From assembly GCA_964460805.1 (NCBI GenBank), contig CAYWPU010000003.1:32014-96013 (forward strand): a stretch of DNA of 64,000 bases. Direction: 5' to 3'. Under the pieces are notes generated by a model, which saw nothing but the letters and a program-made list of their open reading frames with translations, did no database searches and was not told the origin of the DNA. Shown here piece by piece: positions 19,431-46,855 of this stretch. Each line of letters opens with the position of its first letter. Positions within the stretch are counted from its first letter, which is position 1. The position numbers were made by a program, and so were the translations under genes. This stretch comes from an uncultured Candidatus Saccharibacteria bacterium. GTDB taxonomy: Bacteria; Patescibacteriota; Minisyncoccia; Phycocordibacterales; JACOZG01.

Positions 19431-19529
19431 TACCAAATTACATCATAAAATTAGACCACATTGTGTTGTAATTATGTGGTGTAATTTAACCTGCACTTAA
19501 GTAGCGGTAAGTTGTGTTATAATTTCCTC

Positions 19530-20066
19530 ATGTTCTCTGATCCGGCTGAGAATGTGAGGAAGTTTGGCCTGACGGAAGGCGCATGGGTGGCCGACTTTGG
19601 CACTGGCACCGGTGCTTATGCCCTTGCGCTCTCGCAGCAAGTGGGGCACACGGGAGTGGTCTACGCGGTGGAAATCCAGAAAGATCTGCTAGAGCGCCTG
19701 AGCAAAGAGGTCAAGCAGGCGCGCGCGGGGAATATTAAAATTGTGTGGGGTGATGTGGATAAACTTGGCGGCTCCACTCTGCGGGACGCTTCGCTAGATG
19801 CGGTAGTGATCGCCAACGTGCTGTTTCAATCTGAGCAGAAGTATACGCTAGCGCTGGAGGCCAAGCGGGTGCTCCAGCCTGGCGGGCGGGCGATTGTGAT
19901 TGACTGGCTGGGCGCGGGCGGGCAGTTCTCGCCGCCGCCCGAGCGCGTGGTGCGGGCGGAGGAGGTGAAAAAGATTTTTGCTCAAGCTGGCTTCCAATTT
20001 GCCAGCGAGTTCCCAGCCGGCGCGCAACATTACGGACTGATTTTTCTGAAAGCTAAAACCACTTAA
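19530..20066 (+). CDS. class I SAM-dependent methyltransferase
   Basis: Motif I VADFGTGTGAYA. The start is taken at ATG 19530 because the TTG at 19512 lies inside a TGTTATAAT -10 element. Confidence 0.7.
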   Translation: MFSDPAENVRKFGLTEGAWVADFGTGTGAYALALSQQVGHTGVVYAVEIQKDLLERLSKEVKQARAGNIKIVWGDVDKLGGSTLRDASLDAVVIANVLFQSEQKYTLALEAKRVLQPGGRAIVIDWLGAGGQFSPPPERVVRAEEVKKIFAQAGFQFASEFPAGAQHYGLIFLKAKTT

Positions 20067-20090: not shown

Positions 20091-20351
20091 ATGTTTTACA
20101 CTTATGTTCTAGAGAGCCGAAAGAACAGTCGTTGGTACACTGGATATACGACTGATTTGCGGAAACGCCTTAAGGAACACAATAATGGCTTGTCTACGTG
20201 GACAAAAGGACGTGGACCGTTTAAAATTATTTACTATGAAGGGTGTCTCAATGAATATGACGCTCGGTCGAGAGAAAAATATCTCAAATCTGGCATGGGC
20301 AAACGTTATATAAAAAATAGATTAAGGCGTTTCCTGTCTCTAACGGGATGA
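20091..20351 (+). CDS. GIY-YIG nuclease family protein (UPF0213-like)
   Basis: MFYTYVLES...WYTGYTTDLRKRLKEHN shows the GIY...YIG pattern with conserved Arg/Glu. Confidence 0.7.
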   Translation: MFYTYVLESRKNSRWYTGYTTDLRKRLKEHNNGLSTWTKGRGPFKIIYYEGCLNEYDARSREKYLKSGMGKRYIKNRLRRFLSLTG

Positions 20352-21661
20352 ACGGCTTCCAGATGATCATCCTTGCTGTTTTCATTATCGCGCTCGTGGT
20401 GGGGACGCTGATCTTTGCTGGTGTGATACCCGGCTTCCGCGCTCCCAGTGGCGGCGTGGGTGGCACAGTGCTCTGGTGGGGGACGATCCCGGAAGAGCGC
20501 CTGGCCAATTTTCTCCAGACTATCGGCCGCGACTACCGCAAAGACTTCACGCTCCAGTATGTGGAGAAGAGCGAGGCCACACTAGAGAGCGACCTAGTAG
20601 AGGCGCTGGCGCTGGGTCGCGGTCCAGACTTGGTGACTCTCTCTTCCAGCATGCTCCTGCGCCAGTCAGCCAAGCTCTTGCCGGTTCCCTACTCAGTTTT
20701 ATCTAAACAAGACTTCCGCAACACGTTTGTTCTTGGCACGCATATCCGCGAGTGGGAGTTATTATTTGGCACTGATGGCGTGCTTGGCCTGCCGCTCTAC
20801 GTGGATCCGCTCGTGCTCTACTATAACCAGAACTTGCTCGCCAACGCCAAGTTGCCGGTGCCGCCCCAGACCTGGAGCGATTTGGCAAGCGTGATCCGCC
20901 TGCTCACCAAGGCTGATGGCCAAGGCAATATCACCGAGAGCGCTGCGGCGCTTGGCTCGTTTAGCAACATTACTCATGCTAAAGATATTTTAGCTCTGCT
21001 CCTCATGCAGGCTGGCAATCCTATTGTGGCGCGTAACGCCGGCCTGCCGGAGGTAACGCTCAAGGACCCGCTCGGCTTTAATCGTCCACCAGCAGGGGAG
21101 GCGGCGGCCTTCTTCCTCCGCTTTGCTGACCCGGCAAACACGCTCTACTCTTGGAATAGTTCCCAGCCGGAGGCGCGAGAGGCCTTCCTCCGTGGGCGCT
21201 TGGCCTTCTACTTAGGATGGGGCAGTGAGCGGACTAGGCTAGAAGCACAGAATCCTCAGCTCAACTTTGCACTCATGCTCCCGTTCCAGCGAGATCTTGG
21301 CGCTAACCAGCTTACCTTGGGCCGGTTCCACTTCCTGGCTATACCGCGCGCATCTGCCAATCCGCAAACGGCTTATACTGTTGCGCAGTTGCTCACTGGT
21401 CCTCAGTTCGCCGCCGAGCTGGCTACCGCGGCCTCTCTGCCGCCGGCGCGCAATGACTTGCTTGCTACCCTACCCGGTGAGCCAGATGAAGACTTGCTTT
21501 ACCAAGCGGCAGTGGTTGCCCGCGATTGGCTAGATCCGGACCGTGTGCAGTCGGCAACCGTGTTGCGCCGGATGATCGAGTCTATCAATCTTGGTCGAGC
21601 GGATGTGAATCGCGCAATCAATGAGGCCGACGCAGAACTTGAAGCACTCTTGCCGCGTTAA
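20348..21661 (+). CDS. extracellular solute-binding protein (family 1-like), membrane-anchored
   Basis: N-terminal TM anchor and SBP_bac_1-like length and composition. No cognate permease is adjacent. Confidence 0.5.
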   Translation: MNGFQMIILAVFIIALVVGTLIFAGVIPGFRAPSGGVGGTVLWWGTIPEERLANFLQTIGRDYRKDFTLQYVEKSEATLESDLVEALALGRGPDLVTLSSSMLLRQSAKLLPVPYSVLSKQDFRNTFVLGTHIREWELLFGTDGVLGLPLYVDPLVLYYNQNLLANAKLPVPPQTWSDLASVIRLLTKADGQGNITESAAALGSFSNITHAKDILALLLMQAGNPIVARNAGLPEVTLKDPLGFNRPPAGEAAAFFLRFADPANTLYSWNSSQPEAREAFLRGRLAFYLGWGSERTRLEAQNPQLNFALMLPFQRDLGANQLTLGRFHFLAIPRASANPQTAYTVAQLLTGPQFAAELATAASLPPARNDLLATLPGEPDEDLLYQAAVVARDWLDPDRVQSATVLRRMIESINLGRADVNRAINEADAELEALLPR

Positions 21662-21669
21662 ATAAATAT

Positions 21670-22062
21670 ATGAGAATCTTAAAAATATCTGGTGCGATGT
21701 TTGCTTGTTTTGTTTTTATTGTGTTGCCAGTATTGGCGCAAGATGGGGGGCTGGTGCCTTGCGATGGCGCGGATTGCAACGTTAACGCCTTTTTTGCTCT
21801 AGCTAATAATATCGTGCGATATTTTGTATTTACTCTCGCGGTCCCCGCAGCAGTGATTGCGATTACTTACGCTGGTATCACTCGGATACTTCATCCTAAG
21901 GAGTCCGGCAAGCTAGCTGAGTCTAATGGCATTATCATGACAGCAGTAATCGGCTTGGCGCTGGCCTTGGGCGCCTGGCTGATCGTCACCACTATCACTA
22001 ATTACCTGCTCAACGATACACTCAAGAGCAACATTAACCAGTCTCTCCCTAGCGGGACTTAG
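21670..22062 (+). CDS. small 2-TM protein, paralog 1 of a tandem array (VirB2/TrbC-pilin-like, tentative)
   Basis: Signal peptide (VLAQD), a CDGADC pair, then TM1, charged loop (HPKESGKLAESNG) and TM2. Confidence 0.6.
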   Translation: MRILKISGAMFACFVFIVLPVLAQDGGLVPCDGADCNVNAFFALANNIVRYFVFTLAVPAAVIAITYAGITRILHPKESGKLAESNGIIMTAVIGLALALGAWLIVTTITNYLLNDTLKSNINQSLPSGT

Positions 22063-22096
22063 TGAGACTTGTTAGAATTATTTCCAAGATATAAAT

Positions 22097-22450
22097 ATGG
22101 TTGATATTTTCAATAGTTTTGTGGTTTATGCGCAACAATCTTTCCCTACCGGTTCCGGACAGTCTTTTCCCACTGGTTCAGGTGGTGGCTTGATCAAGAA
22201 TCCCATCAACGTCAATACTCTGCGCGAGTTTGTGGGTAAGATATTAGAGGTCGTGGTCTATGTGGGCCTGCCAGTGCTGGTGGTGGCGGTGGTCTATGTG
22301 GGCTTCCTCTTCGTGGCCGCACGGGGGAGTGAGACTAAATTGACAGAAGCCAAACACGCTCTCTTGGCCGTGGTGATTGGCGCGGCCATTGTGCTTGGCG
22401 CCTTTGTGATCGCCGCGGCGATTGAGAATACGGTGAACAGTCTAAGATAA
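22097..22450 (+). CDS. small 2-TM protein, paralog 2 of the tandem array
   Basis: N-terminal tandem QSFPTGSG repeat, then TM1-charged loop-TM2. The C-terminal helix hairpin is shared with the neighbouring ORFs. Confidence 0.6.
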   Translation: MVDIFNSFVVYAQQSFPTGSGQSFPTGSGGGLIKNPINVNTLREFVGKILEVVVYVGLPVLVVAVVYVGFLFVAARGSETKLTEAKHALLAVVIGAAIVLGAFVIAAAIENTVNSLR

Positions 22451-22458
22451 ATTAAAAT

Positions 22459-22764
22459 ATGCCAAACGGTAACCCTGATTTTGCCAGTCTTGTCTCGCTC
22501 GTGATCGGCAGCGTATTCAGCCCGCTCACAGGCTTGCTCATTGGTGCCGCGGTTGTGTACTTCCTTGCTGGCGTGCTAAAATATGTCCGGCAAGTCAGTG
22601 ACGACAAGGCTCGGGAAGAGGGTCGGAAGATGATGCTCTACGGGATTGTCGCTCTCTTTGTCATGATCTCGGTGTGGGGGTTGGTCAATGTCTTGAGGGG
22701 GACGTTCCTCCTTGAGGATTATAGTCCTCCCGTGCCCGATTTCAGAGGGCTGAATCAAGGTTAG
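22459..22764 (+). CDS. small 2-TM protein, paralog 3 of the tandem array
   Basis: TM1 ...GAAVVYFLAGVLKYV, charged loop, TM2 MMLYGIVALFVMISVWGLVNVL. Near-identical block in paralogs 4 and 5. Confidence 0.65.
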   Translation: MPNGNPDFASLVSLVIGSVFSPLTGLLIGAAVVYFLAGVLKYVRQVSDDKAREEGRKMMLYGIVALFVMISVWGLVNVLRGTFLLEDYSPPVPDFRGLNQG

Positions 22765-22803
22765 TGAGGTTGTTTGGTTTATTAATTAATTTATAAAAAT
22801 TAG

Positions 22804-23154
22804 ATGAACAAGTTATCTAGAATCCTGACTGCCGGCGCAATGAGCGCTCTGCCAGTGCTCGCTTTTGCCCAGGGACGCAATATCCAGAGCATCTTTGATC
22901 TCGTTTTGGATCTCATCAATCGCTATATTATCCCGATCATCATTGGTTTGGCGGTGGTTTGGTTCCTCTGGGGTGTGGCTCAGTATGTGATGGCCGCTGG
23001 TGATGAAGATAAAAAGAAGACGGGTCGTGATCACATGATCTATGGCATCATCGCGCTCTTTGTGATGGTTGCTGTTTGGGGATTGGTGAACGTGTTGGGC
23101 GGTACTCTCAACCTCACCACCACGCCGCCACCACTGCCAGAGATCAGGCAATAA
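22804..23154 (+). CDS. small 2-TM protein, paralog 4 of the tandem array
   Basis: Signal peptide (VLAFAQG), TM1, loop AAGDEDKKKTGRDH, TM2 MIYGIIALFVMVAVWGLVNVL. Confidence 0.65.
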   Translation: MNKLSRILTAGAMSALPVLAFAQGRNIQSIFDLVLDLINRYIIPIIIGLAVVWFLWGVAQYVMAAGDEDKKKTGRDHMIYGIIALFVMVAVWGLVNVLGGTLNLTTTPPPLPEIRQ

Positions 23155-23162
23155 GCTCTGCC

Positions 23163-23435
23163 ATGCCCTGGCTCGCCGCCACTGCCTACGCCGCCGCGCC
23201 GCCGATACTGCAGAAGATCAACCAGGCGATTGTGAACCCGTTGATCATGTTCCTATCCGCGCTCGCCTTTATCACCTTCCTCTACGGAGTGTATGAGATG
23301 GTGTCGCAATCAGACAACGAAACAGCGCGGCAGACTGGCCAACAGCACATGCTCTGGGGTGTGGTGGGACTCTTCATTATGTTCTCGGTGATGGGGATAC
23401 TGAACGTGGTTTGCCGCACGATTGGTTGTAACTGA
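23163..23435 (+). CDS. small 2-TM protein, paralog 5 of the tandem array
   Basis: Start taken at the internal ATG (23163). TM1, loop SQSDNETARQTGQQH, TM2 MLWGVVGLFIMFSVMGILNVV, C-terminal CRTIGC. Confidence 0.6.
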   Translation: MPWLAATAYAAAPPILQKINQAIVNPLIMFLSALAFITFLYGVYEMVSQSDNETARQTGQQHMLWGVVGLFIMFSVMGILNVVCRTIGCN

Positions 23436-23479: not shown

Positions 23480-23519
23480 AAAACCCCGCGGCAACAAGTA
23501 GTTGCGCGCGGGGTTTTGG
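23480..23519. terminator. bidirectional intrinsic terminator between the paralog array and the convergent SPFH operon
   Basis: aaaaccccgcg...cgcgcggggtttt hairpin flanked by A- and T-runs. Confidence 0.7.
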
Positions 23520-23528
23520 TTGTTGCGA

Positions 23529-24185
23529 TTAACGCCGCTCCCAAAATACTCTAACTGTGATCGGAGAATTCCTGGCTTTGAACCTCAATTCTCCTGGTGC
23601 TACTTCGGGCCAGCGCACGTTAACATCTGGACCAATTTCTCGCACTTCGCCGGATGGGAACTTGATCCATCCGTATCCGTCTTCGTAGATTTGACACTCG
23701 GATTGGGGAGGGACGATAATGGGTCTAGACCAACCGTCACTTGTAGCGATCAGTTCGTCGTAACCCGGCTGTCTCGGCTTTTGCGCGACAGCCACCTCTC
23801 GTCCCGGGCTCTGAGATGTTCTTGGTTTCTCCCACCACCCATAGCCTAGGTATATCACCCAGCCTATGAGAACGCAGATAGCCACCGTCCCCAGCGATTT
23901 GCCGAATTTCTTCCAGCCTGCATAGTTTCTGGGGGGTGGGTCAGTATCGCCATTCTTTTTTGTGATGGATCGCCAGACCCATCGGATGAGGAGCGAGAAC
24001 AACAAGATCGTCCCCGCTATCAGTCCCCAGACTACGGCCGTTTCAGTCGCAGTAAGTGGATTGGTTGCTGTTATGGGAGCTTCTGCGGCAATCTTAGTAG
24101 AAGTGCTGGAGTTGCACCTTGCAATCAAGACCCAGATCCCACAACACAGAGTCACGACAATCACTAAACCTCGGAATTTCCTCAT
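23529..24185 (-). CDS. hypothetical membrane protein (3 TM helices plus C-terminal soluble domain)
   Basis: 218 aa; last gene of the minus-strand SPFH operon; no recognisable domain. Confidence 0.45.
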   Translation of the reverse strand: MRKFRGLVIVVTLCCGIWVLIARCNSSTSTKIAAEAPITATNPLTATETAVVWGLIAGTILLFSLLIRWVWRSITKKNGDTDPPPRNYAGWKKFGKSLGTVAICVLIGWVIYLGYGWWEKPRTSQSPGREVAVAQKPRQPGYDELIATSDGWSRPIIVPPQSECQIYEDGYGWIKFPSGEVREIGPDVNVRWPEVAPGELRFKARNSPITVRVFWERR

Positions 24186-24189
24186 TAGT

Positions 24190-24474
24190 TCACCTCACTT
24201 TCTTGTTCTGTGTTTTTTCAGCTTTTGACAGTTTCAGGAGTAGGGAGATGATCTTTGTTCCCAGTCTCCACCAACGTTCACCTTGATCCCAGAAGAAGCG
24301 ACTGACCCTCCAAGCATCAGCGATGCGCCGGAGTACCCAGCCGATCTCTGCCCGGCAGTGATAGATCAGCTCTATCGTCATCCAGATCACGATTACCAGA
24401 GCGAACAATTTAACCGGGTCCATTTTTACCTCACGTTTCTGGAGCCGTTCTTGCCCCTCAGTTTCAGTTGTCAA
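24190..24474 (-). CDS. small single-TM hypothetical protein (94 aa)
   Basis: Lies between the SPFH gene and the 218-aa membrane gene on the same strand. Confidence 0.4.
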   Translation of the reverse strand: MTTETEGQERLQKREVKMDPVKLFALVIVIWMTIELIYHCRAEIGWVLRRIADAWRVSRFFWDQGERWWRLGTKIISLLLKLSKAEKTQNKKVR

Positions 24475-24609
24475 AAAGTGGCTAACTTAAGCCGCTTTAC
24501 TATGTATCTAACCCTATTATAGCAAATACACAGATTTTGTCAAGTATAAGAAAAGCCCCGGACGGAATACCGCCTAGGGCTTGTTTTCTTCTAGGAGCTC
24601 TCCCCCGTG

Positions 24610-25728
24610 TCACGGTTCGTCTGTGACAGAACCGGGACCGGCAACGGGAACAGTGTTGATCGGAGGTTGTCCGCCGATACTCAGGACTTTGACATTGGTT
24701 TGCTTCAATGCCTCTGCTTCCGCCAGTCTTGCAACCAGGCGGTTGTCATCTCCTGCGGCTTTTCTTTTTCTGCGGACTACAGCAGCTTCAGCATTGCCCT
24801 TCTTGAGAATCGCTGTGCCCTCTCCTCTTGCTTTAGCAATGACTCCAGCCGCTGTCCTCTTCTCAACCTCTTCTTTCCGGAAAGCTTCACCGACGGCAGG
24901 ATCACTGAACTCGAAGTTCTGGAACTCCACAGAGACAATCCTGACACCGCAGAGTCTGAGGATGCCATCCTCGGCCTCTGCTATTGCCGGTTCTGTACCG
25001 ACAGATGGCACCGCTTCTCCGTTCATTTCCATAATCCGGGTACGCAAGTCATTCGTGGCCCCCGCTTCCTTTGCTTTCAAGGCTCGTAGAGTCTCGATAG
25101 TGACATCTTTTTCTCCAGCGTAGCCACGCGTTGCTTCTGCGACCTTGGCTACAACCAGCCCAAGCCAGTTCCCGGTTGGTTGCAACCGGAACAGAGTAGT
25201 CTCGGGCCTGACTATCTCTATGGTTACCACCAGTACGATGTTCACTTCTGCGAGTCCTTCCATGTTGACCTTTTTTACCTCTATCCCGTATGGGTAACGG
25301 AACAGCAGAGAGTCTACATCCTCTCGGTCTCGGGATATGAGGGCAAACTCATCGCTACCCTCTGCTTTATCCCACTTGACCCAAGAGAACTTGTAGGTGA
25401 GTACTCGCCAGAAAGGTGGTAGACCAATCCAATACATGCCCAGGAAGCTCCTGGGTTCTTTTGGTTTTGGTTGGCCTGGGTCTACTCTTTTAATTTCTCG
25501 CGCAGCTTCGTCGTAATAGTACCCACCCACATTCACCAAGATCCTCTTGAGAGAGTCTCCTCGCATGATTGCTTTGATCTGTCCTTGAGGGACAAATCCC
25601 AAAAACCTGTCTTTCTCTGCGAGTTTGTACACACCCAGATATAGCAGAATCATCATAAAGACAATTCCCAAGCTTACTACGTAGGGGCTTGCCACAGACC
25701 AAATGCTTGTCCAGTTGATATCTGTCAT
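24610..25728 (-). CDS. SPFH/band-7 (stomatin/flotillin-like) family membrane protein
   Basis: N-terminal TM helix followed by an SPFH core and a long Ala/Glu/Lys-rich coiled-coil tail. Confidence 0.7.
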   Translation of the reverse strand: MTDINWTSIWSVASPYVVSLGIVFMMILLYLGVYKLAEKDRFLGFVPQGQIKAIMRGDSLKRILVNVGGYYYDEAAREIKRVDPGQPKPKEPRSFLGMYWIGLPPFWRVLTYKFSWVKWDKAEGSDEFALISRDREDVDSLLFRYPYGIEVKKVNMEGLAEVNIVLVVTIEIVRPETTLFRLQPTGNWLGLVVAKVAEATRGYAGEKDVTIETLRALKAKEAGATNDLRTRIMEMNGEAVPSVGTEPAIAEAEDGILRLCGVRIVSVEFQNFEFSDPAVGEAFRKEEVEKRTAAGVIAKARGEGTAILKKGNAEAAVVRRKRKAAGDDNRLVARLAEAEALKQTNVKVLSIGGQPPINTVPVAGPGSVTDEP

Positions 25729-25870: not shown

Positions 25871-25957
25871 TGGTGCCGAGGAGAGGACTTGAACCTCCAT
25901 GGGGTTGCCCCCGACAGCTCCTAAGGCTGTTGCGTCTGCCAATTTCGCCACCTCGGC
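25871..25957 (-). tRNA. tRNA-Leu (anticodon TAG), CCA encoded
   Basis: Reverse complement GCCGAGGTGGCGAAATTGGCAGACGC...loop CTTAGGA...long variable arm...GGTTCAAGTCC...CTCGGCACCA. Confidence 0.85.
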
Positions 25958-25979
25958 GTTTTCTCAAAAACCAGAACTG

Positions 25980-26052
25980 TGCCCTGTGAGGGATTTGAAC
26001 CCCCGACCGTTCGCTTAAGAGGCGACTGCTCTACCAACTGAGCTAACAGGGC
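25980..26052 (-). tRNA. tRNA-Lys (anticodon CTT)
   Basis: Reverse complement GCCCTGTTAGCTCAGTTGGTAGAGC...loop CTCTTAA...GGGTTCAAATCCC...ACAGGGC. One non-canonical pair closes the anticodon stem. Confidence 0.75.
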
Positions 26053-26076
26053 GTGCTTAAATTTATAACACAGAAG

Positions 26077-26158
26077 TGCCCGGGGTGGGAATCGAACCCA
26101 CATCTCTTGCGAGACACGATTTTAAGTCGTGCGCGTATACCAGTTCCGCCACCCGGGC
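26077..26158 (-). tRNA. tRNA-Leu (anticodon TAA)
   Basis: Reverse complement GCCCGGGTGGCGGAACTGGTA...loop CTTAAAA...long variable arm...GGGTTCGATTCCC...CCCGGGC. Confidence 0.85.
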
Positions 26159-26200
26159 GGGCCAGCTCCTGCCAGTTCCTGAGAAACCGGCGATGCCGGG

Positions 26201-26272
26201 AGGCCTAGGGCGGAATCGAACCGCCGTGTAAGGGTTTTGCAGACCCTTGCCTTACCACTTGGCGACTAGGCC
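26201..26272 (-). tRNA. tRNA-Cys (anticodon GCA)
   Basis: Reverse complement GGCCTAGTCGCCAAGTGGTAAGGC...loop CTGCAAA...GGTTCGATTCCGCC CTAGGCC. Confidence 0.85.
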
Positions 26273-30309: not shown

Positions 30310-31119
30310 ATGGACGAATTAAATAAAAACCAAATCGTTTTGCTGGTCTTGCTAGTGAGCTTTGTCACTTCTATTGCCACTGGCATCGTAACAGTCACCC
30401 TACTACAGCAGGCGCCTGCGGCCGTAACCCAGACGATCAATCGCGTGGTGGAGCGGACTATTGAGAAGACAGTCCCCGGCGATACCAAAACTGAGACGGT
30501 TATCAAAGAGGTGCCGGTGATTGTGACCGAAGAGCAATTGATTGTGGACGTGATCAACTCGGCCTCACCCTCAGTGGTGCGTATTGCTGGACGCGACGGG
30601 ACAACCATTGGTTCCGGATTTATTGTGGGTGATGCCGGCATGCTCGCGAGTGTGAGCAAGCTCTTCCCAACTCGTCCGGCCGATAGCGAGCCTTATCAAG
30701 TCTTCCTCAGTCAGGGGCGTCAGGGCACAGCGCGGGTGGTGGCCTCCAAGGTTGATCGCGGGGTTACTTTGCTCCAACTAGATCCCGCCAGCTTGCGCGA
30801 TAGCAGAGGTGATCCGGTAACCGTGGCTCAGTTAGCTAAGTTGGAACTCGCCGAGGCTGAGGCCTTACCCGGCCAGACGGTGGTGACGATTGGTGTGCCG
30901 GATAGCGGGCCGATCACCGTCTCTGGCGGTATTGTCTCTGGCCTCTTTACCAACTCCACTACTGGCATTGCTACCATCAATACCAGCGCTGCTAACCAGG
31001 CTAACCTAGGTGGCCCCTTGCTCAATATCCGGGGCAAAGTAATTGGTATCAGCAATGACCCCGGCGTAGCTCTGACCTCTGGGATGATCAACGCCGTGCT
31101 CGCAGGTGTCAGTCAGTAG
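30310..31119 (+). CDS. membrane-anchored trypsin-like (HtrA/S1C-like) domain protein, predicted catalytically inactive
   Basis: HtrA-like blocks GSGFIVGD, DRGVTLLQLD, TVVTIGVPDSGPITVSGGIVSG are present. The His-box lacks His. The Ser box GNSGGP is replaced by ANLGGP. There is no PDZ domain. Confidence 0.6.
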   Translation: MDELNKNQIVLLVLLVSFVTSIATGIVTVTLLQQAPAAVTQTINRVVERTIEKTVPGDTKTETVIKEVPVIVTEEQLIVDVINSASPSVVRIAGRDGTTIGSGFIVGDAGMLASVSKLFPTRPADSEPYQVFLSQGRQGTARVVASKVDRGVTLLQLDPASLRDSRGDPVTVAQLAKLELAEAEALPGQTVVTIGVPDSGPITVSGGIVSGLFTNSTTGIATINTSAANQANLGGPLLNIRGKVIGISNDPGVALTSGMINAVLAGVSQ

Positions 31120-31135
31120 TTTATATTTATTCTCT

Positions 31136-33829
31136 ATGCCTCCATTTGCTAACTTCACTGCCAAAGCTAAAGAAGTGATCAGGAAAACGCACGAGCTGGC
31201 CATTGAGCGCGGGCAGAACCACGTGAGTCCACTGCACTTGCTGGCCGGCTTGCTCTTGCAGGACGAGAGCATGTTTGTGTCTATTTTAGATAAAATTGAA
31301 GTGGATACCGTGATGCTCACGGACTATGTGGTTGAGAGCCTGGAGGGGCAAGAGCAAACGGGAGTGCTCTCGGCGGCTTACCAGATCTATCTCACGCCCG
31401 AGCTGGTGAAAGTTTTTGATACTTCTGGCAAGATCGCCGCTAACTTGCAAGACGAGTTCGTCTCTACCGAGCACTTATTGCTCGCACTGCTGGAGACGCC
31501 GAACCAAGCGCACGAGATCCTGGCGCGCTTTAGAGTTACCAAAGAGCGCGTGCTTAAGGTGTTGCAGGAGATGCGCATGAGTCAGACTCGGGAAGTAGAT
31601 CAGGGTAAAAAGTTTAAAAATATTGAAAAGTTTACTAAGAATCTCACTGATCTTGCGCGGGCGGATAAACTGGATCCGGTCATTGGTCGCGAGGAAGAGA
31701 TCCAGAGACTGATGGAGATCTTGTCTCGCCGGACGAAAAACAATCCAATCTTGATTGGCGAAGCGGGCACGGGCAAAACGGCGATTGCAGAAGGCTTGGC
31801 AATCAAGATCGCCAAGAACGATGTACCAGAGTCGCTGAGAGAGAAGGAGCTGGTCTCGCTTGACTTGGGCCTGCTGGTGGCTGGCACCAAGTATCGCGGT
31901 GAGTTTGAAGAGCGCTTGAAGGGCGTGCTTAAGGAGCTGGAACGCTCGGGTAATAAATTTATCTTGTTTATTGACGAGATTCACACCATTGTGGGCGCTG
32001 GCGCGGCTGAGGGCGCGATTGACGCCTCCAATATGCTCAAGCCGGCGCTCGCACGTGGCGAATTGCGCGCGATTGGTGCCACAACCATCAAAGAATATCA
32101 AAAGTATATAGAGAAAGACCAGGCGCTCACGCGTCGCTTCCAGCCCGTGCATGTGGAGGAGCCCAGCGTGGAGGATGCTATTACTATCTTACGCGGACTC
32201 AAGCCGCGCTATGAGAGTCATCACGGTGTGCATATCACAGATAGTGCGATTGTGGCGGCGGTACAGCTCTCTAGCCGGTATATTACTGATCGCTTTTTGC
32301 CGGATAAAGCTATTGATCTAGTAGACGAGGCGGCGAGCGCGTTGAGACTGCAACTGGAGAATAAGCCGGAGGCGCTGGGTGAGGCGGATACTAAGATCAT
32401 GCATCTGGAAGTGGAAAAAGAAGCGCTGAAAAAAGAGCTTGCGCTGAATGAGTCTAATAGGAAAATAAAAAGCCGAGTGAAGCAGATTGAGAAGGAGATC
32501 GGCGACTTGCGCGAGCAGGTGAGTGAGCTGGAGCTGAAGTGGAAGAACGAGAAGGAGGTGATCAGCGAGATTAAGTCGCTGAAGCGCGACTTGGATAGTT
32601 TGCGACTGGAGGCCGAGCAGGCGGAACTGCGCACGGATCTCTCGCGCGCGGCGGAGATCCGATATGGCAAGATTCCTAATATCCAGAAGGAACTGAAAGC
32701 GCGCGATGCTAAGCTCAAGAAATTGCAGAGCTCTCGGAGAATCTTAAAAGAAGAAGTGACGGACGAGGAGATCGCTAAAGTGGTGGCGCGCTGGACGCAT
32801 ATCCCTGTCACCAAGATGCTGGAGGGCGAGGTGACTAAGCTTGCCCGCGTGGAGGAGGAACTGCGCTCGCGCGTGCGCGGCCAGGACGAAGCGATCCGGA
32901 AGATTGCCGAGGCGGTGAAGCGCTCGCGCGCCGGTGTGGGCGACCCCGACCGGCCGATTGGCTCGTTTATGTTGCTTGGCCCGACTGGCGTGGGTAAAAC
33001 GGAACTTGCTAGAACCTTGGCGCACTTTATGTTTGATGACGAAAAGGCGCTGGTGCGGATTGACATGAGCGAGTATATGGAGAAGTTCTCGGTTTCCAAA
33101 CTAATCGGCTCGCCGCCGGGCTATGTGGGCTATGAGGAAGGCGGCGCGCTCACGGAAATCGTCCGACACAGGCCTTACTCTGTGCTGCTCTTTGATGAAA
33201 TAGAAAAGGCCAATCCAGAAGTCTTCAATATTCTCTTGCAAGTTCTAGACAACGGACGCTTAACTGACGGCAAAGGCCGGACGGTCAACTTTAAGAACAC
33301 CATCGTCATCCTCACGTCCAATATCGGCAGTGAGTTCATCCAGCGCTTGCAGAAGATCGGCTTCTCGGCTGGCGAGAGCTCGGATGCCTCTGACTACAAC
33401 GAGACCAAACAGCGCATTATGGATAGCCTCAAGAATCACTTCCGGCCCGAGTTCTTGAACCGCCTGGACGATATCATCATCTTCAATCCCTTGCCGGCGG
33501 AGGTGATAAAAGAAATTGTAGATATCCAGCTCCGGCTAGTCCGCGAGCGCCTGGCGCACAAGAACATCACGCTCAGTGTCTCGCCCGAGACGATGGCCTA
33601 CCTGGCACGCGAGGGCTATAGCGCCGAGTATGGCGTGCGGCCGCTCAAGCGCTTGATCCAGAACAAGATCTTGAACCAAGTGGCTGAGTTTATCATCGCT
33701 CGCAAGATTGATGCCGCTGGCGGTGTGCTGGAAGTAGGGATGAAGGGCGGCGAGCCAGTGCTGGAGCTCAAGAAGGGGAGCAGGCGCGTGGCTAGGTCTG
33801 ACGGCGTTGCCACAGCTGGTGCTAAGTAG
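31136..33829 (+). CDS. clpB: ATP-dependent chaperone ClpB
   Basis: Clp N-domain repeats, NBD1 [18 protein letters not shown], long middle coiled-coil, NBD2 [17 protein letters not shown], and sensor-2 motif. Start is at an internal Met; the longer ORF begins at 31106. Confidence 0.9.
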
Positions 33830-34977: not shown

Positions 34978-35739
34978 ATGACAGAAAATCAATTGAGTGG
35001 TAAGGAGCTCTACGAGCAGAAGAAGGCGGAGAAGGCGCGTGGATCCGGTGCGGCTAGCACTGGCGGTTCCGGCTCGCGCTGGTGGACCTGGCTGGTGGTG
35101 GCGCTGGTGTTGGCCGGGGCCGTGTATGGCGTCTATAAGCTGGCTACCAGCACGCCGCCGGGCGGCGCTGGTCCTGCCGGTTCGCTCACCGAGCCGCTCA
35201 ATGCTGGGGATTGGCTAGCCGGCAACCCCGAGGCGGCCATCCAGCTGGTGGAGTATAGCGACCTGCAATGCCCGGCTTGTGCTGACTATGCGCCAATGCT
35301 GGCGCGTTTGGTGGAGGAGCATGGCGAGGAGATCGCTGTAGCCTACCGCCACTTCCCGCTCCGGAGTATCCACCAGAACGCCCAAGCCGCGGCGGAGGTT
35401 GCCGAGGCCGCTGGCGTGCAGGGTAAATTCTGGGAGGCGGTAGAGATCCTCTTCCAGAACCAGAGCGCCTGGGCCAGTCAGATCGCGCCACAGGAGACCT
35501 TCTACCGCCTGCTCGCCCCGCTCGGCCTCAATCTGGTTAAACTCAAGCAAGATGCCGAGAGTAGCGCGGCTAAGAACAAAGTTGACCAGCATTACCAGAG
35601 CGGCCTGCGGAGCGGCGTAGATGCCACACCCAGCTTCTTCCTGAACGGCGAGCGGATCCGCCTACCCAATACTTATGAGGACTTCCGCGATCTCGTGCTT
35701 GGTGTCGTCGCTCCCGCTCCTATTACCAATGTCCAATAA
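34978..35739 (+). CDS. DsbA-like thioredoxin-fold thiol:disulfide oxidoreductase, membrane-anchored
   Basis: N-terminal TM and CPAC active site (VEYSDLQCPACADYAP) in a DsbA/BdbD-like fold. Confidence 0.75.
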   Translation: MTENQLSGKELYEQKKAEKARGSGAASTGGSGSRWWTWLVVALVLAGAVYGVYKLATSTPPGGAGPAGSLTEPLNAGDWLAGNPEAAIQLVEYSDLQCPACADYAPMLARLVEEHGEEIAVAYRHFPLRSIHQNAQAAAEVAEAAGVQGKFWEAVEILFQNQSAWASQIAPQETFYRLLAPLGLNLVKLKQDAESSAAKNKVDQHYQSGLRSGVDATPSFFLNGERIRLPNTYEDFRDLVLGVVAPAPITNVQ

Positions 35740-36169
35740 ACGCTTCTCTATTTTGGTTCTGGTGTTTGCGCTGGTTGGCTTCCTAGACGCCACTTATCTC
35801 AGTATCAAGCATTACACCGGCGGCACCTTGCCCTGCTCTATTTTAGACGGCTGCGATACGGTAACGACCAGCGCTTATGCCAGCTTTGGTCCGGTGCCAG
35901 TGGCATTGCTCGGCGCGCTCTTCTATCTCTCGGTGATTGTGTTAGCGATCCTGCGTCTGCAGAATCAAGATAGCGCCAAGCCTCTTAATCTCATCTTCTG
36001 GCTCTCATCGCTCGCCTTCCTCGCTTCGCTCTGGTTCGTTTATCTGCAGTTCTTTGTTATTAAAGCGCTCTGCTTGTATTGCTTGATCTCCGCCACCACT
36101 TCTACTCTCATCTTTCTGCTAGCGCTCTGGTGGCGTAGGAGAGCACGGCGTGAGGTGCTAGCCAGTTAA
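35729..36169 (+). CDS. vitamin K epoxide reductase (VKOR) family protein (DsbB-functional analogue)
   Basis: 4-TM protein with a loop Cys pair (CSILDGC) and C-terminal CLYC redox motif. Adjacent to the DsbA-like gene, a known DsbA-VKOR pairing. Confidence 0.7.
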   Translation: MSNKRFSILVLVFALVGFLDATYLSIKHYTGGTLPCSILDGCDTVTTSAYASFGPVPVALLGALFYLSVIVLAILRLQNQDSAKPLNLIFWLSSLAFLASLWFVYLQFFVIKALCLYCLISATTSTLIFLLALWWRRRARREVLAS

Positions 36170-44059: not shown

Positions 44060-44420
44060 CTACCTGCGCTGGCATTACTCACACGCCTGGGTGGAGCTCT
44101 GGGCTATTGAGCGCAACCTGATCTGGTTCCTGTATCACTTTTTCTCTATTCGTGTTTTGTCACGCACGCTCTTAGCTCCTTGGCGGCGCCTGGGTGAGAC
44201 TTATCCTGAGCGATTTAACGTGGCCGCCTATCTGAGTGTTTTTTTTATCAATAGCCTCATGCGCCTGGTTGGCTTGGTGGCTCGCTTGGCGGTCATTATG
44301 TTTGGCTATCTGGTTATGCTAGTTGCTTTATTAATTGGCTTTCTGATCTTCCTGATCTGGCTGACTCTGCCGCTATTATTAATTGCCGTGTTTGTCCTCG
44401 CCCTCAATCTTATCTTTTGA
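44028..44420 (+). CDS. small polytopic membrane protein, hypothetical
   Basis: Highly hydrophobic 130-aa ORF. Overlaps the serS 3' end and abuts the Clp-like gene. The real start is uncertain. Confidence 0.35.
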   Translation: MAMTPLVLPFSYLRWHYSHAWVELWAIERNLIWFLYHFFSIRVLSRTLLAPWRRLGETYPERFNVAAYLSVFFINSLMRLVGLVARLAVIMFGYLVMLVALLIGFLIFLIWLTLPLLLIAVFVLALNLIF

Positions 44421-46855
44421 TCATCATGAGTGAACTGCAACAGAGAGTCAGAGCTAGTAGACTTTATCCGGTACTCTTGCTGGAGCAGGTTATCTCTCGT
44501 CGCGCGCGACACACCTTGCTGGTAATTACCCAGCTCTTATTTCTTGCCTTTCTACTCGTGCTAATTTTTGATCAACAGGGCAGCTTTGTGGCTGGTCAAG
44601 AAAAGTTGCTCTCTGGTTTGGCTTTGCTCACACTGGTGGTGGCCACCAAGTTCTACTTATTAGAACTTTATTTTCGCTCTCATTATTATTCCAGCATCAT
44701 TAGCAATAATTATCAGACTGCCGACCTTTTCTCTTTCACCGTTGGCCGGATTCTCTTCCGCGCGCGCGATGGTGATATCGCGCGCGCTTTTGTGCAGTCT
44801 GAGACTGGTGCGCTGGTCTTGCGCCGGCTGGGGATCACTGCCGAAGAATCCAGATCCTTTCTCCAGTCTCGCGGTAATCAATCTAATATTAATCTAGAAT
44901 TGGCTGGTGCTAAACCTCTAACTCTCCGCGCGCTGGCTGATTGGCTCTGTGCCAACAATTCCGCTTTTGCCAAGTTTCTGTTTCGTCAACAGTTAAATAC
45001 CTCTGACCTCCACGCGGCCGTGGATTGGGTGGTGGGCGATATTGAACGTGAGGCAAGACAAGCGCGCTGGTGGAGCCGCGAGCAATTGGCGCGCGTGCCT
45101 GGTCTGGCTAAAGATTGGTCTTACGGCGGGGCTTATGCCTTGGAGCGTTACGGTGAGGACATGCTCCAATCCGAGCAGTCTGGTATTTTCAATACCGCAG
45201 TTAGCGCCAGAGAAGAGGAGATGAAACAGTTAGAGACTATCTTGAGTCGCAGTGAGGAGGCCAACGCTCTCCTGGTGGGTCCGGCGGGCGAGAGTAAGCT
45301 GGATGTGGTCTGGCAACTGGCTAATGAGATCAAAAGCGGTCGGGTCCCGCCTGGCTTGGAGTACCGGCGTCCGTGGCTCTTGCGCACGGCTTTGCTGCTT
45401 GCCGATCATCGCGAGCGGCAGGACTTTGAGCGTACCATGCTCAGACTCTTGCTGGAGGCGGAGCGCTCGGGGAATGTTATTTTAGTAATAGACGACCTGG
45501 GCGTGCTGCTTGCCGGTGCCGAGCGATTGGGTAGCAAGTTGGTCTCTTTGCTCGGTCCTTATCTGCGCTCGGCATCACTGCCCGTGATCGCTCTAGTTGA
45601 AGCGGGTCTTTATCAGAAGTTATCATTTGAGCAGGCGGATCTACTGAGCCGCTTTGAGACGCTCACGATTAATGAGATTGATCAGTTGCGTCTTTATCAT
45701 TTATTAGAGCAACGAGCCTCACGGTTTGAGGAAACTCAAAATATCTTTTTTACCTACCCGGCAATTAAGGCGACTATTGAGAGTGCTGAGCGTTATTTCC
45801 CCGGCGAGCAGCTCTCTGACCAAGCACTGGATTTAATAGTGGAGATTGTGCCTTGGTCCATCGCGCACCATGTCCAAACAATTGAGCCGGAGCATGTATT
45901 GGCATTGGTGCAGGAGAAGACAAAGATCCCCATGGGTGCAATCGGGCAAGCCGAGCGTGTGGCTTTGGCCAGTTTAGAGCAGAGCCTGCGAGCGCAGGTC
46001 ATTGGTCAAGAGCCGGCACTCCGGAGCATTAGTGAGGCACTCCGGCGTAATCGTGCTGGTGTCTCTAATCGACGCAAACCGATCGGTTCTTTTCTATTCT
46101 TGGGTCCGACTGGTGTGGGTAAAACCGAGACGGCCAAAGCGCTGGCGCGCTCACTCTTTGGCCGGGAGGAGGCACTCTTGCGCTTGGACATGAGTGAGTA
46201 TCAATCCAGTGATGCCCTCACACGCTTGCTTGGCTCGTTCTCCGATAATCGTCCCGGCATCTTGGCCACCATGTTGCGCGAGACCCCATATGGCGTCCTC
46301 TTGCTTGATGAATTTGAGAAAACCTCACCAGAGGTACTTAATCTGTTTTTGCAAATTTTTGACGAGGGATTCTTTAGCGACGCTTTTGGCCGGCGGGTGA
46401 ACGCGCGTAATTTGATCTTGATTGCCACCTCCAATGCTGCCGCTGAGAGCATCTGGCGGATGGTGCAAGCGGGCAATGATCCGGTCGCCGCGCGTGATGA
46501 ATTGGTAGACGAGATGATTAGCAAAGCTATCTTCCGCCCAGAGTTGCTTAATCGTTTTGATGATATCATCATCTTCCATCCGCTTAGTCCTCTGGAGTTG
46601 CAGAAGGTAGCCAAGCTCTTGCTGGAGAGATTGACTACCCGCTTGCTGGAGCAGGGTATCAAGCTCAAGATCACTCAGGATCTGGTGGATCAGGTGGCGC
46701 AAGCCGGTAGCGATCGCGTCTTTGGTGCTCGTCCGCTTAATCGCCATATCCAGAGCAAGGTAGAACAAGTGGTAGCCGATGCGATTATCAGTGGCCGTCT
46801 GACTCCGGGGACGAGTGTGGAGTTCCGTGGCGGCAAATTGATCTCGACTGCTTAA
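44417..46855 (+). CDS. membrane-anchored Clp/Hsp100-family AAA+ protein with degenerate NBD1 and intact NBD2
   Basis: Two N-terminal TM helices and a Clp-N-like repeat. NBD1 Walker A is degraded to GPAGESKL and Walker B to VIDDLG. NBD2 is intact ([24 protein letters not shown], sensor-2 GARPL). Confidence 0.7.
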   Translation: MIIMSELQQRVRASRLYPVLLLEQVISRRARHTLLVITQLLFLAFLLVLIFDQQGSFVAGQEKLLSGLALLTLVVATKFYLLELYFRSHYYSSIISNNYQTADLFSFTVGRILFRARDGDIARAFVQSETGALVLRRLGITAEESRSFLQSRGNQSNINLELAGAKPLTLRALADWLCANNSAFAKFLFRQQLNTSDLHAAVDWVVGDIEREARQARWWSREQLARVPGLAKDWSYGGAYALERYGEDMLQSEQSGIFNTAVSAREEEMKQLETILSRSEEANALLVGPAGESKLDVVWQLANEIKSGRVPPGLEYRRPWLLRTALLLADHRERQDFERTMLRLLLEAERSGNVILVIDDLGVLLAGAERLGSKLVSLLGPYLRSASLPVIALVEAGLYQKLSFEQADLLSRFETLTINEIDQLRLYHLLEQRASRFEETQNIFFTYPAIKATIESAERYFPGEQLSDQALDLIVEIVPWSIAHHVQTIEPEHVLALVQEKTKIPMGAIGQAERVALASLEQSLRAQVIGQEPALRSISEALRRNRAGVSNRRKPIGSFLFLGPTGVGKTETAKALARSLFGREEALLRLDMSEYQSSDALTRLLGSFSDNRPGILATMLRETPYGVLLLDEFEKTSPEVLNLFLQIFDEGFFSDAFGRRVNARNLILIATSNAAAESIWRMVQAGNDPVAARDELVDEMISKAIFRPELLNRFDDIIIFHPLSPLELQKVAKLLLERLTTRLLEQGIKLKITQDLVDQVAQAGSDRVFGARPLNRHIQSKVEQVVADAIISGRLTPGTSVEFRGGKLISTA

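Follow-up and report, generated by a model that had tools for sequence, protein, structure and literature searches.

A stretch of 64,000 nucleotides of contig CAYWPU010000003.1 (called the window below, 64 kb in length) contains, at positions 21670-23435, five consecutive open reading frames (ORFs) on the plus strand, each of which codes for a small membrane-hairpin protein. The question raised by this locus is what such a row of related and yet dissimilar proteins is for: pilins of a type IV secretion system (T4SS), parts of some other envelope structure, a cassette of surface variants, or toxins. It is, in our judgement, virtually certain that the five genes encode VirB2-like hairpins of the T4SS_pilin family in a Patescibacterium of the Paceibacteria class, a conclusion carried by their family, their order and their conservation. 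As an explanation of the locus as a whole we favour, with moderate confidence, a heteromeric envelope assembly of VirB2-like subunits and a solute-binding protein (SBP), served by a T4SS and located at the interface with the host cell. The five genes are the following.

21670-22062, plus strand: P1 (type 1), a pilin-like protein of 130 amino acids with a signal peptide, a GLVPC..C motif (here GGLVPCDGADC) and a transmembrane (TM) hairpin.
22097-22450, plus strand: P2 (type 2), a pilin-like protein of 117 amino acids with two QSFPTGSG repeats, an NP motif and a TM hairpin.
22459-22764, plus strand: P3 (type 3/4), a pilin-like protein of 101 amino acids, leaderless, with a short N-terminal tail and a hairpin ending in WGLVNVL.
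22804-23154, plus strand: P4 (type 3/4), a pilin-like protein of 116 amino acids with a signal peptide (..VLAFAQ/G), a hairpin and a Pro-rich C-terminal tail.
23163-23435, plus strand: P5 (type 5), a pilin-like protein of 90 amino acids, short and leaderless, with an AYA..NPLI N-terminal tail and CRTIGCN at the C-terminus.

The gaps between the consecutive genes are 34, 8, 39 and 8 nt, and P1 follows the SBP gene after 8 nt. Identical copies of the array are present on contigs from several other sequencing runs, where an independent gene caller finds the same five genes; on the identical Logan contigs it starts P1 at ATG 21697, which gives 121 amino acids. The start of P5 is likely the ATG at 23163, since the alternative, a TTG ORF from 23076, would have an overlap of 79 nt with P4 and is at odds with the lengths of the orthologues (79-136 amino acids). 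The G+C content and base composition of the array resemble those of the rest of the window.

In all five proteins, the hydropathy profile displays a C-terminal pair of hydrophobic segments with a short charged loop between them. The AlphaFold2 model of P4, calculated with 74 homologues, has a mean pLDDT of 81.8 and consists of a signal-peptide helix and two further helices (residues 27-63 and 68-101) that form a helical hairpin. Leaders of ca 22 residues are found in P1 and P4, and P3 and P5 have none. The paralogues of the window share 20-47% pairwise identity, and their alignment shows that the N-terminal, exposed parts differ most. The initial annotation of this DNA had described the locus in much the same terms, and this description stands: the five tandem plus-strand ORFs code for 90-130 amino acids and are spaced by 8-39 nt, the architecture of TM1, charged loop and TM2 is shared at the C-terminus, a hairpin is also what structure prediction returns for P4, and the motifs that were quoted (CDGADC in P1, the doubled QSFPTGSG in P2, CRTIGC at the end of P5, the signal peptides of P1 and P4) are all present. 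The nearly identical TM2 block is recognised as WGLVNVL in both P3 and P4.

The family was assigned by profile searches. Among the Pfam families, PF18895 (T4SS_pilin) is the best match for every one of the five proteins, with E-values from 2.7e-10 to 3.3e-5, in agreement with the T4SS pilin guess made earlier. Relative to the gathering cut-off of 26.6 bits, P3 (39.3 bits) and P4 (40.6) lie above, P2 (26.6) is equal to it, and P1 (25.1) and P5 (24.3) are just below. The latter two were taken into the family via their orthology to annotated genes at the same array positions. Namely, in one related locus (L014) both the first and the last gene of the array are annotated as PF18895, in another (L013) the first is so annotated and the last weakly, and ten long orthologues of P1, described further below, score 25.9-43 bits, nine of them above the cut-off. 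A hidden Markov model (HMM) specific to the lineage matches all five proteins with E-values from 4e-45 to 6e-14 (2e-18 for P1 and 3e-26 for P5). Since all five match both PF18895 and the lineage-specific model, the array is not a product of chance. The architecture of PF18895, that is, an optional leader and two hydrophobic helices joined by a short polar loop in a core of ca 70 residues, is found here as well.

The second-best Pfam match is PF04956 (TrbC/VirB2, gathering cut-off 27.9 bits), which is sub-threshold for P1 (23.4 bits, E 6.9e-5) and P2 (22.3 bits, E 1.5e-4), gives 13.1 bits for P4 and has no match to P3 and P5, so that none of the five reaches the cut-off for membership. In NCBIfam, NF045849 (Mbov_0395 family pilin-like conjugal transfer protein) is the best match for P2-P5, with an E-value of 1.6e-8 for P3 and all scores below its cut-off of 40 bits. 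A profile of P4 relatives searched against the PDB has the pKM101 pilin TraM (8cw4) at the top, with a marginal E-value of 0.051. For P4, 211 homologues were obtained, and every listed one is annotated as PF18895; their source names are Patescibacteria, Paceibacterota, Vogelbacteria and Minisyncoccota, mostly of the Paceibacterota type. A profile search over 1.84 billion representatives gave 18,109 members of the family at 50% identity with E ≤ 1e-3. No transporter family in Pfam or NCBIfam matches the hairpins. Type IV pilins were considered as well: the G/(F,M)xxxE motif of class III signal peptides is absent from all five proteins, none has a Pfam match to type IV pilins, and the hydrophobic pair is C-terminal in all of them, unlike the single N-terminal helix of type IV pilins.

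A comparison with related genomes reveals that the array is an ordered set. In 53 loci with five genes, the best match of each gene is found at the same array position in 95, 96, 56, 86 and 97% of the cases (positions 1 to 5), positions 3 and 4 being confused chiefly with each other. The arrays follow the formula 1-2-(3/4)n-5 with n = 2-5; the larger ones (123445, 1233445 and 1233335, for example) gain genes of type 3/4 only, often as tandem fusions. The types have their own signatures. At least two Cys residues are present in all 53 type 1 orthologues, which also share the GLVPC..C motif and, in 52 of the cases, a leader. Type 2 has a consensus of its own with the NP motif and the most TrbC-like core, and P2 is the closest of the five proteins to TrbC/VirB2. 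Of the 53 type 4 orthologues, 52 carry a leader, and type 5 is short and leaderless, with only two hairpin segments, in 50 of 53, and conserves the AYA..NPLI tail. The ectodomains of types 1 and 3, on the other hand, vary in length and content among species.

The rates of change are ordinary. Identities to the orthologues are 32-65% for the pilins, 42-68% for the SBP and 51-60% for the methyltransferase encoded upstream, and the SBP gene together with P1-P5 is identical, nucleotide for nucleotide, in the window and in five to six independent samples. The paralogues are thus ancient and positionally orthologous in at least 53 species. Positional orthology, type signatures, ordinary rates and the lack of differences between strains argue, at the level of sequence, for a fixed set of heteromeric subunits and against recent duplication, hypervariation or antigenic switching. 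The rapid N-terminal diversification that had been suggested is therefore not supported; the paralogues are old, their order is conserved and their identity to orthologues is like that of the SBP and the methyltransferase. That the N-termini are all different holds when paralogues are compared with one another; positional orthologues, however, have in common the motifs of their position and the presence or absence of a leader. Likewise, of the two kinds of variation that one could expect among related genomes, that of copy number is found (in type 3/4), while the position-specific motifs of the N-termini are conserved.

Directly upstream of the array lies the gene of its conserved partner:

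20348-21661, plus strand: membrane-anchored SBP of 437 amino acids with an N-terminal TM helix, SBP_bac_1/SBP_bac_8 (PF01547/PF13416), MalE-like fold.

The SBP has weak matches to sugar SBPs among the PDB sequences, and its fold, taken from the model of a fusion orthologue, most resembles UgpB and the oligosaccharide binders of the MalE type (with a mannobiose-binding protein, the Foldseek E-value is 1.5e-21). An alignment scan with the SBP, using one genome per species, gave 340 loci, the best 80 of which were examined with the lineage HMM. In these 80 loci, pilin genes are located directly 3' of the SBP gene on the same strand wherever the sequence extends. Where 3.5 kb or more of downstream sequence is available, which is so in 65 loci, the SBP gene is without exception followed by 4-7 pilin genes (by five in 47 of the loci); the first pilin ORF begins a median of 4 nt after the SBP stop codon. 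In L013 and L014, which come from two distant relatives, the order is gyrA, SAM-dependent methyltransferase (SAM, S-adenosylmethionine), membrane-anchored SBP_bac_1 protein and five or six PF18895 genes, as it is here. The neighbourhood is not that of an ABC importer: neither in the window nor in L013 and L014 is the SBP gene accompanied by genes for an ABC permease or ATPase. It has the methyltransferase gene upstream (here also a GIY-YIG gene) and the pilin genes downstream, and the window's sole ABC genes, at 57.5-64 kb, belong to the Peripla_BP_6/BPD_transp_2 type. The coupling of an SBP to a pilin array was not found described in the literature searched, and the survey of patescibacterial pilins discussed below (PMC12102498) makes no mention of solute-binding proteins.

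The coupling is also seen in gene fusions. In-frame fusions of the SBP to the type 1 hairpin occur in three loci (L037, L058 and L092) and in five protein clusters (P0126, P0127, P0129, P0196 and P0200, from the best 120 out of at least 1,355 homologues of the SBP), and their linkers follow two different designs. The AlphaFold2 model of such a fusion (mean pLDDT 84.9) consists of a TM helix, the SBP fold (above 90), a disordered linker and the hairpin; with this domain order the topology is consistent, as the SBP and the pilin N-terminus are both placed outside. Ten further type 1 orthologues have large ectodomains, namely L029 4722-6347 and the first pilins of L065, L089, L085, L038, L064, L082, L043, L052 and L062. 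They are 356-541 amino acids long, with an N-terminal ectodomain of 250-450 residues and the PF18895 hairpin at the C-terminus, and in four of the ten Pfam recognises the ectodomain: Peptidase_S8 (subtilase) in one, fn3/purple-acid-phosphatase-N-like domains in two and TSP1 in one. The type 1 hairpin seems to be a general anchor for surface modules.

Hairpins are fused to each other as well. Types 1 and 2 form a single ORF in L019, L035 and L054, and fusions of types 1 and 2 or tandem fusions of type 3/4, with 2-3 hairpins, are present in 13 loci, including L062 (12801-13697). Three polypeptides, P0342 (606 amino acids), P0374 (552) and P0246 (335), have tandem hairpins behind one signal peptide, and the tandem-hairpin polypeptides as a group contain 2-7 hairpins with up to 14 TM helices. 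To our knowledge, neither covalently concatenated pilins of the VirB2 type nor ectodomain fusions of VirB2 are known. Because the fusions follow the gene order, the SBP and the hairpins would be parts of one assembly, with the hairpins side by side. Judged from these fused genes, a single physical complex that includes the SBP is probable.

How does this compare with systems already known? The nearest ones are other patescibacterial arrays. In the saccharibacterium Southlakia epibionticum, six PF18895 pilins, SEML1_0014-0019, adjoin the T4SS core, and these pilins as well as nearly all T4SS core genes are essential for epibiotic growth (Wang 2023, PMC10633639). In a survey of 3,035 genomes (Quinonero-Coronel 2025, PMC12102498), VirB4 was found to be widespread in the phylum and present in most Patescibacteria. 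VirB2-like pilins were reported there for 1,948 VirB4-positive assemblies, close to virB4 in 1,135 of the 1,948 and away from it in about 40%. The same survey lists 441 arrays with 2-11 genes each from 383 assemblies, chiefly of Microgenomatia and Saccharimonadia, with a mean identity of 25%, and it suggests that the variability of the arrays aids adaptation to different hosts; arrays near virB4 are the subject of its Fig. S9, and in Paceibacteria virB4 is usually near dnaA. A 2025 review names the patescibacterial pilins as the sole exception to the rule that T4SSs of monoderms lack VirB2. For metagenome-assembled genomes from a Paceibacterales enrichment, predicted structures were examined for highly expressed genes without a known function, and T4SS pilins were among these (PMC10936435).

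The array of the window resembles these arrays in that it is a chromosomal tandem of at least two PF18895 genes with weaker PF04956 matches, in the low identity of the paralogues (their 25% mean against the 20-47% given above) and in having only patescibacterial relatives. There are also clear differences. The six genes of Southlakia are inside a T4SS cluster, and the published description puts such arrays in or near the virB4 cluster (within 20 coding sequences), whereas the five genes described here have no T4SS gene near them in 64 kb; and while the published arrays were read as providing versatility towards host strains, the present one is a fixed, positionally orthologous set that is coupled, and occasionally fused, to an SBP. 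The expectation that this would be an undescribed system has to be given up, as tandem arrays of VirB2-like pilins have already been published (PMC10633639, PMC12102498). The locus represents a variant of them that is widespread in Paceibacteria and of which we found no description: it is separate from virB4, its order is fixed, and a MalE-like SBP is coupled to it.

Pilins from other groups are less similar. VirB2/TrbC pilins have a long leader that is removed, are cyclised, and polymerise with phospholipid into an extracellular pilus. These diderm proteins (VirB2/TrbC/TraA, PF04956, with the pKM101 pilin TraM, 8cw4, as an example) share with the present ones a leader, two helices and a short, often basic loop, but they differ in the length of the leader, in the adjoining virB operon and in having one major pilin instead of five subunits. 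The proteins Mbov_0395 and MMCAP2_0565 from the integrative and conjugative elements (ICEs) of Mycoplasma (NF045849) are likewise two-helix proteins, of 80 amino acids, of a monoderm T4SS; Mbov_0395 is a single gene in a conjugative element, in contrast to the chromosomal set of five. Finally, the major and minor pilins of type IV pili offer an analogy for a fixed, ordered set of specialised subunits, with no sequence relationship and no prepilin-peptidase motif.

From these results we propose the following working picture. The topology predicted from the sequences would place both the N- and the C-terminus on the outside, with the short charged loop on the cytoplasmic side. The leaders of types 1 and 4, and mostly also those of type 2, would be cut by signal peptidase I, for which a lepB gene is present in the window, and the extracytoplasmic Cys pairs would form disulfides. 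Types 1, 2 and 5 are specialised subunits present in single copy, while type 3/4, variable in dosage, is probably the bulk subunit. The SBP and the five hairpin proteins would then make up one heteromeric envelope assembly in which the hairpins are packed side by side. Type 1 could act as the adaptor that carries the extracellular modules, bare in the present organism with the SBP alongside, and fused elsewhere to the SBP, to a subtilase or to Fn3/TSP1 domains. In the least certain step, a T4SS encoded at a distance (VirB4/VirB3/VirB6) would draw hairpins from the membrane pool into a short filament or stalk, a step proposed by analogy with the essential pilin array in the T4SS cluster of Saccharibacteria. 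The structure would act at the contact with the host cell, where the SBP might capture a host-derived glycan or a glycerophospho-type ligand, or serve as an adhesin. The dependence on a T4SS and the formation of a filament, which follow from homology, are the tentative part of the proposal, and we would place them slightly below an even balance.

A number of observations weigh against the T4SS-served assembly and need to be considered. As had been stated initially, there is no secretion machinery in the window: among the ORFs of at least 120 amino acids that were scanned or annotated, no VirB4, VirD4, VirB6 or VirB3/PrgI was found, and every ORF of at least 400 amino acids belongs to a non-T4SS family. 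Logan contigs that extend the sequence by a few kb beyond either end of the window contain nothing T4SS-like, and no T4SS partner turned up among 22 large non-syntenic ORFs in the ±10 kb flanks of the module from 80 species (judged by the best 25 of 43 matched families). Four module-bearing genomes, all of them drafts, appear in Table S1 of PMC12102498, and two of these (L046 and L066) are scored as VirB4-negative there, the other two (L072 and L074) as VirB4-positive. The likeness to bona fide VirB2/TrbC is below the Pfam threshold, and a Foldseek search of the P4 hairpin against the PDB was non-specific, with no match at E ≤ 0.001 and a best E-value of 0.34. The Foldseek matches of P4 were discarded as evidence, being generic helical hairpins among which an archaeal conjugation pilus ranks 46 with an E-value of 4.6. 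A filament of any PF18895 protein is not reported in the literature searched. As regards the SBP, the string from gyrA over the methyltransferase to the SBP gene is also tight, so that the mere neighbourhood of the genes could be a consequence of conserved synteny in a streamlined genome; the fusions are the sole direct argument for a physical coupling of SBP and array. Moreover, the big ectodomain fusions and the chains of 6-7 hairpins fit a membrane anchor or ring at least equally well.

The last point leads to the alternative that survives best, although we hold it to be distinctly the less likely one, namely an envelope module that is independent of any T4SS. Here the hairpins would stay in the membrane as a hetero-oligomeric ring or raft with at least 10 TM helices, which would anchor and organise extracellular proteins, the SBP in this case and proteases or adhesion domains in other species, and might, with the same low likelihood, be the membrane part of an SBP-dependent uptake of host compounds. 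This would account for the missing T4SS ATPase, both within 10 kb in the sampled species and in the window, for a constant SBP partner without adjoining ABC permease or ATPase, and for hairpins fused to SBP, subtilase and Fn3 domains. The concatenation of 2-7 hairpins is closer to the fused c-ring subunits of rotary ATPases than to any known pilin; that comparison is an analogy for how hairpins tolerate concatenation, as there is no sequence relationship and no ATPase subunits are nearby. The two VirB4-negative entries in Table S1 also point in this direction, but both genomes are incomplete drafts. On the other side, the family is defined by its association with T4SSs, both in the ICEs of monoderms and in Saccharibacteria, and in the latter the array and the T4SS core are essential together. 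In addition, VirB4 is found in most Patescibacteria, pilins distant from virB4 are common, and the hairpins match no transporter family. A stronger version, somewhat more doubtful still, makes the SBP and the ordered hairpin set a self-contained envelope machine of Paceibacteria, independent of any T4SS, in which a hairpin ring or short stalk tethers the MalE/UgpB-like SBP. If it were true, a self-contained machine would capture and take up host glycans or lipid head groups, with subtilase or adhesion domains tethered in other species, and repurposed pilin hairpins would have given rise to a new kind of binding-protein-dependent uptake or host-interface device.

Much less probable is an antigen- or receptor-varying surface cassette, as had been proposed initially, in which the paralogues would be interchangeable variants for different hosts or for evasion. 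The tandem VirB2-type genes of Bartonella and Anaplasma, cited in PMC12102498, are amplified in a similar way and are thought to serve antigenic variation. What speaks for such a cassette here is the low identity of the paralogues, the divergence of their exposed N-terminal parts, the ectodomains of types 1 and 3 that differ among species, and the copy number of 2-5 for type 3/4. Against it stand the positional orthology with its fixed order and type-specific motifs, orthologues that evolve no faster than the SBP or the methyltransferase, and the locus itself, where no repeats, invertible elements or recombinase were found. In contrast to the Bartonella and Anaplasma arrays, order, motifs and sequence are conserved and there is no variation at strain level: the SBP gene and P1-P5 do not differ between samples at all, while a patch in the neighbourhood is polymorphic.

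The patch in question covers 670 bp at 23904-24576 and contains 30 substitutions, mostly transitions, and a 12-nt indel relative to contigs that are otherwise identical over ca 12 kb. It affects the N-terminal half of a membrane protein of 218 amino acids and an ORF of 94 amino acids (minus strand, 23529-24185 and 24190-24474). Because only two haplotypes are seen, it looks like a tract of recombination or allelic replacement rather than one of hypermutation. A diversity-generating retroelement was considered and rejected, as there are two haplotypes only and the changes are mostly transitions that are spread over the 670 bp.

The suggestion of a membrane-active toxin/immunity family, or of holin-like or defence genes, for which one could cite the tandem of small two-TM proteins and a generic PADLOC match ('mad2') of the upstream methyltransferase, can be dismissed as scarcely credible, given that P1-P5 and the SBP have no PHROGs or PADLOC matches, that no relatives are found on viral contigs, that the locus is syntenic in the core genome with gyrA adjacent in 69 loci, that its base composition is like that of the rest of the window, and that the PF18895 assignment is consistent.

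As to the surroundings of the array, three more features belong to its immediate context:

19512-20066, plus strand: SAM-dependent methyltransferase (Pfam, on an identical contig); context of the array and, like the next gene, only a possible member of the module.
20091-20351, plus strand: GIY-YIG protein of 86 amino acids (Pfam, on an identical contig), overlapping the SBP start by 4 nt.
23480-23519, no strand assigned: G+C-rich hairpin between the array and the convergent genes, with RNAfold energies of -30.1 kcal/mol (plus) and -29.5 kcal/mol (minus).

In 76 loci, the SBP gene is preceded at a distance of ca 0.5 kb by a homologue of the methyltransferase gene, and in 69 loci at ca 3 kb by gyrA. 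The PADLOC match of the methyltransferase has an E-value of 1.2e-17 and most likely reflects a generic similarity of the methyltransferase fold. The GIY-YIG gene is missing at the equivalent place in L013, L014 and most of the related species compared, and is a lineage-specific insertion into a conserved gene string. The hairpin at 23480-23519 has an A-run upstream and a T-run downstream and is likely a bidirectional terminator; it was missed by a simple terminator scan, and a scan with consensus promoters and terminators gave sites no more numerous than in shuffled sequence. The operon-like packing and the shared hairpin terminator that had been described are thus borne out by the gaps and by RNAfold. 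The label of SPFH/band-7 for the convergent gene at 24610-25728 (minus strand) is not: Pfam gives no match at E ≤ 0.1, and by BLASTP the protein is not similar to the Band_7 protein encoded at the corresponding position in L013; this ORF of 372 amino acids has an N-terminal TM segment and homologues in just 15 related loci.

The window as a whole is core chromosome, with gyrA, topA, dprA, serS, hisS, ftsZ/ftsA, infB, parB, dnaX and lepB, and it also contains two ClpB-like genes, a DsbA-like/VKOR pair, an ABC amino-acid-type importer and 12 tRNAs. The genes for the DsbA-like thioredoxin-fold protein and VKOR overlap (34978-36169) and form an extracytoplasmic disulfide-forming pair, with which the extracytoplasmic Cys pairs of P1 and P5 fit. 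In addition to a complete clpB at 31106-33829, there is a second ClpB-like gene at 44417-46855 (812 amino acids) with strong matches only in the C-terminal AAA_2/D2-small half, which may be a degenerate or specialised paralogue. A cluster of four tRNAs (Leu-tag, Lys-ctt, Leu-taa and Cys-gca; minus strand, 25871-26272) lies between the convergent uncharacterised genes and rbfA/infB.

Much of the uncultured bacterial diversity belongs to the Patescibacteria, which depend on host cells. In the sole species tested, their T4SS-like genes and pilin arrays proved essential, yet the literature calls the function completely unknown. In Paceibacteria, the pilin-like genes are a conserved multi-subunit set and not a variation cassette, which is also a warning that the divergence of paralogues alone should not be read as antigenic variation. 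The set is genetically welded to an SBP of the sugar/glycerophosphodiester type, and this gives a testable handle on what the apparatus does and bears on whether the patescibacterial T4SS is an uptake device. The locus is thus not a new kind of system, but a useful handle on an essential apparatus of the Patescibacteria.

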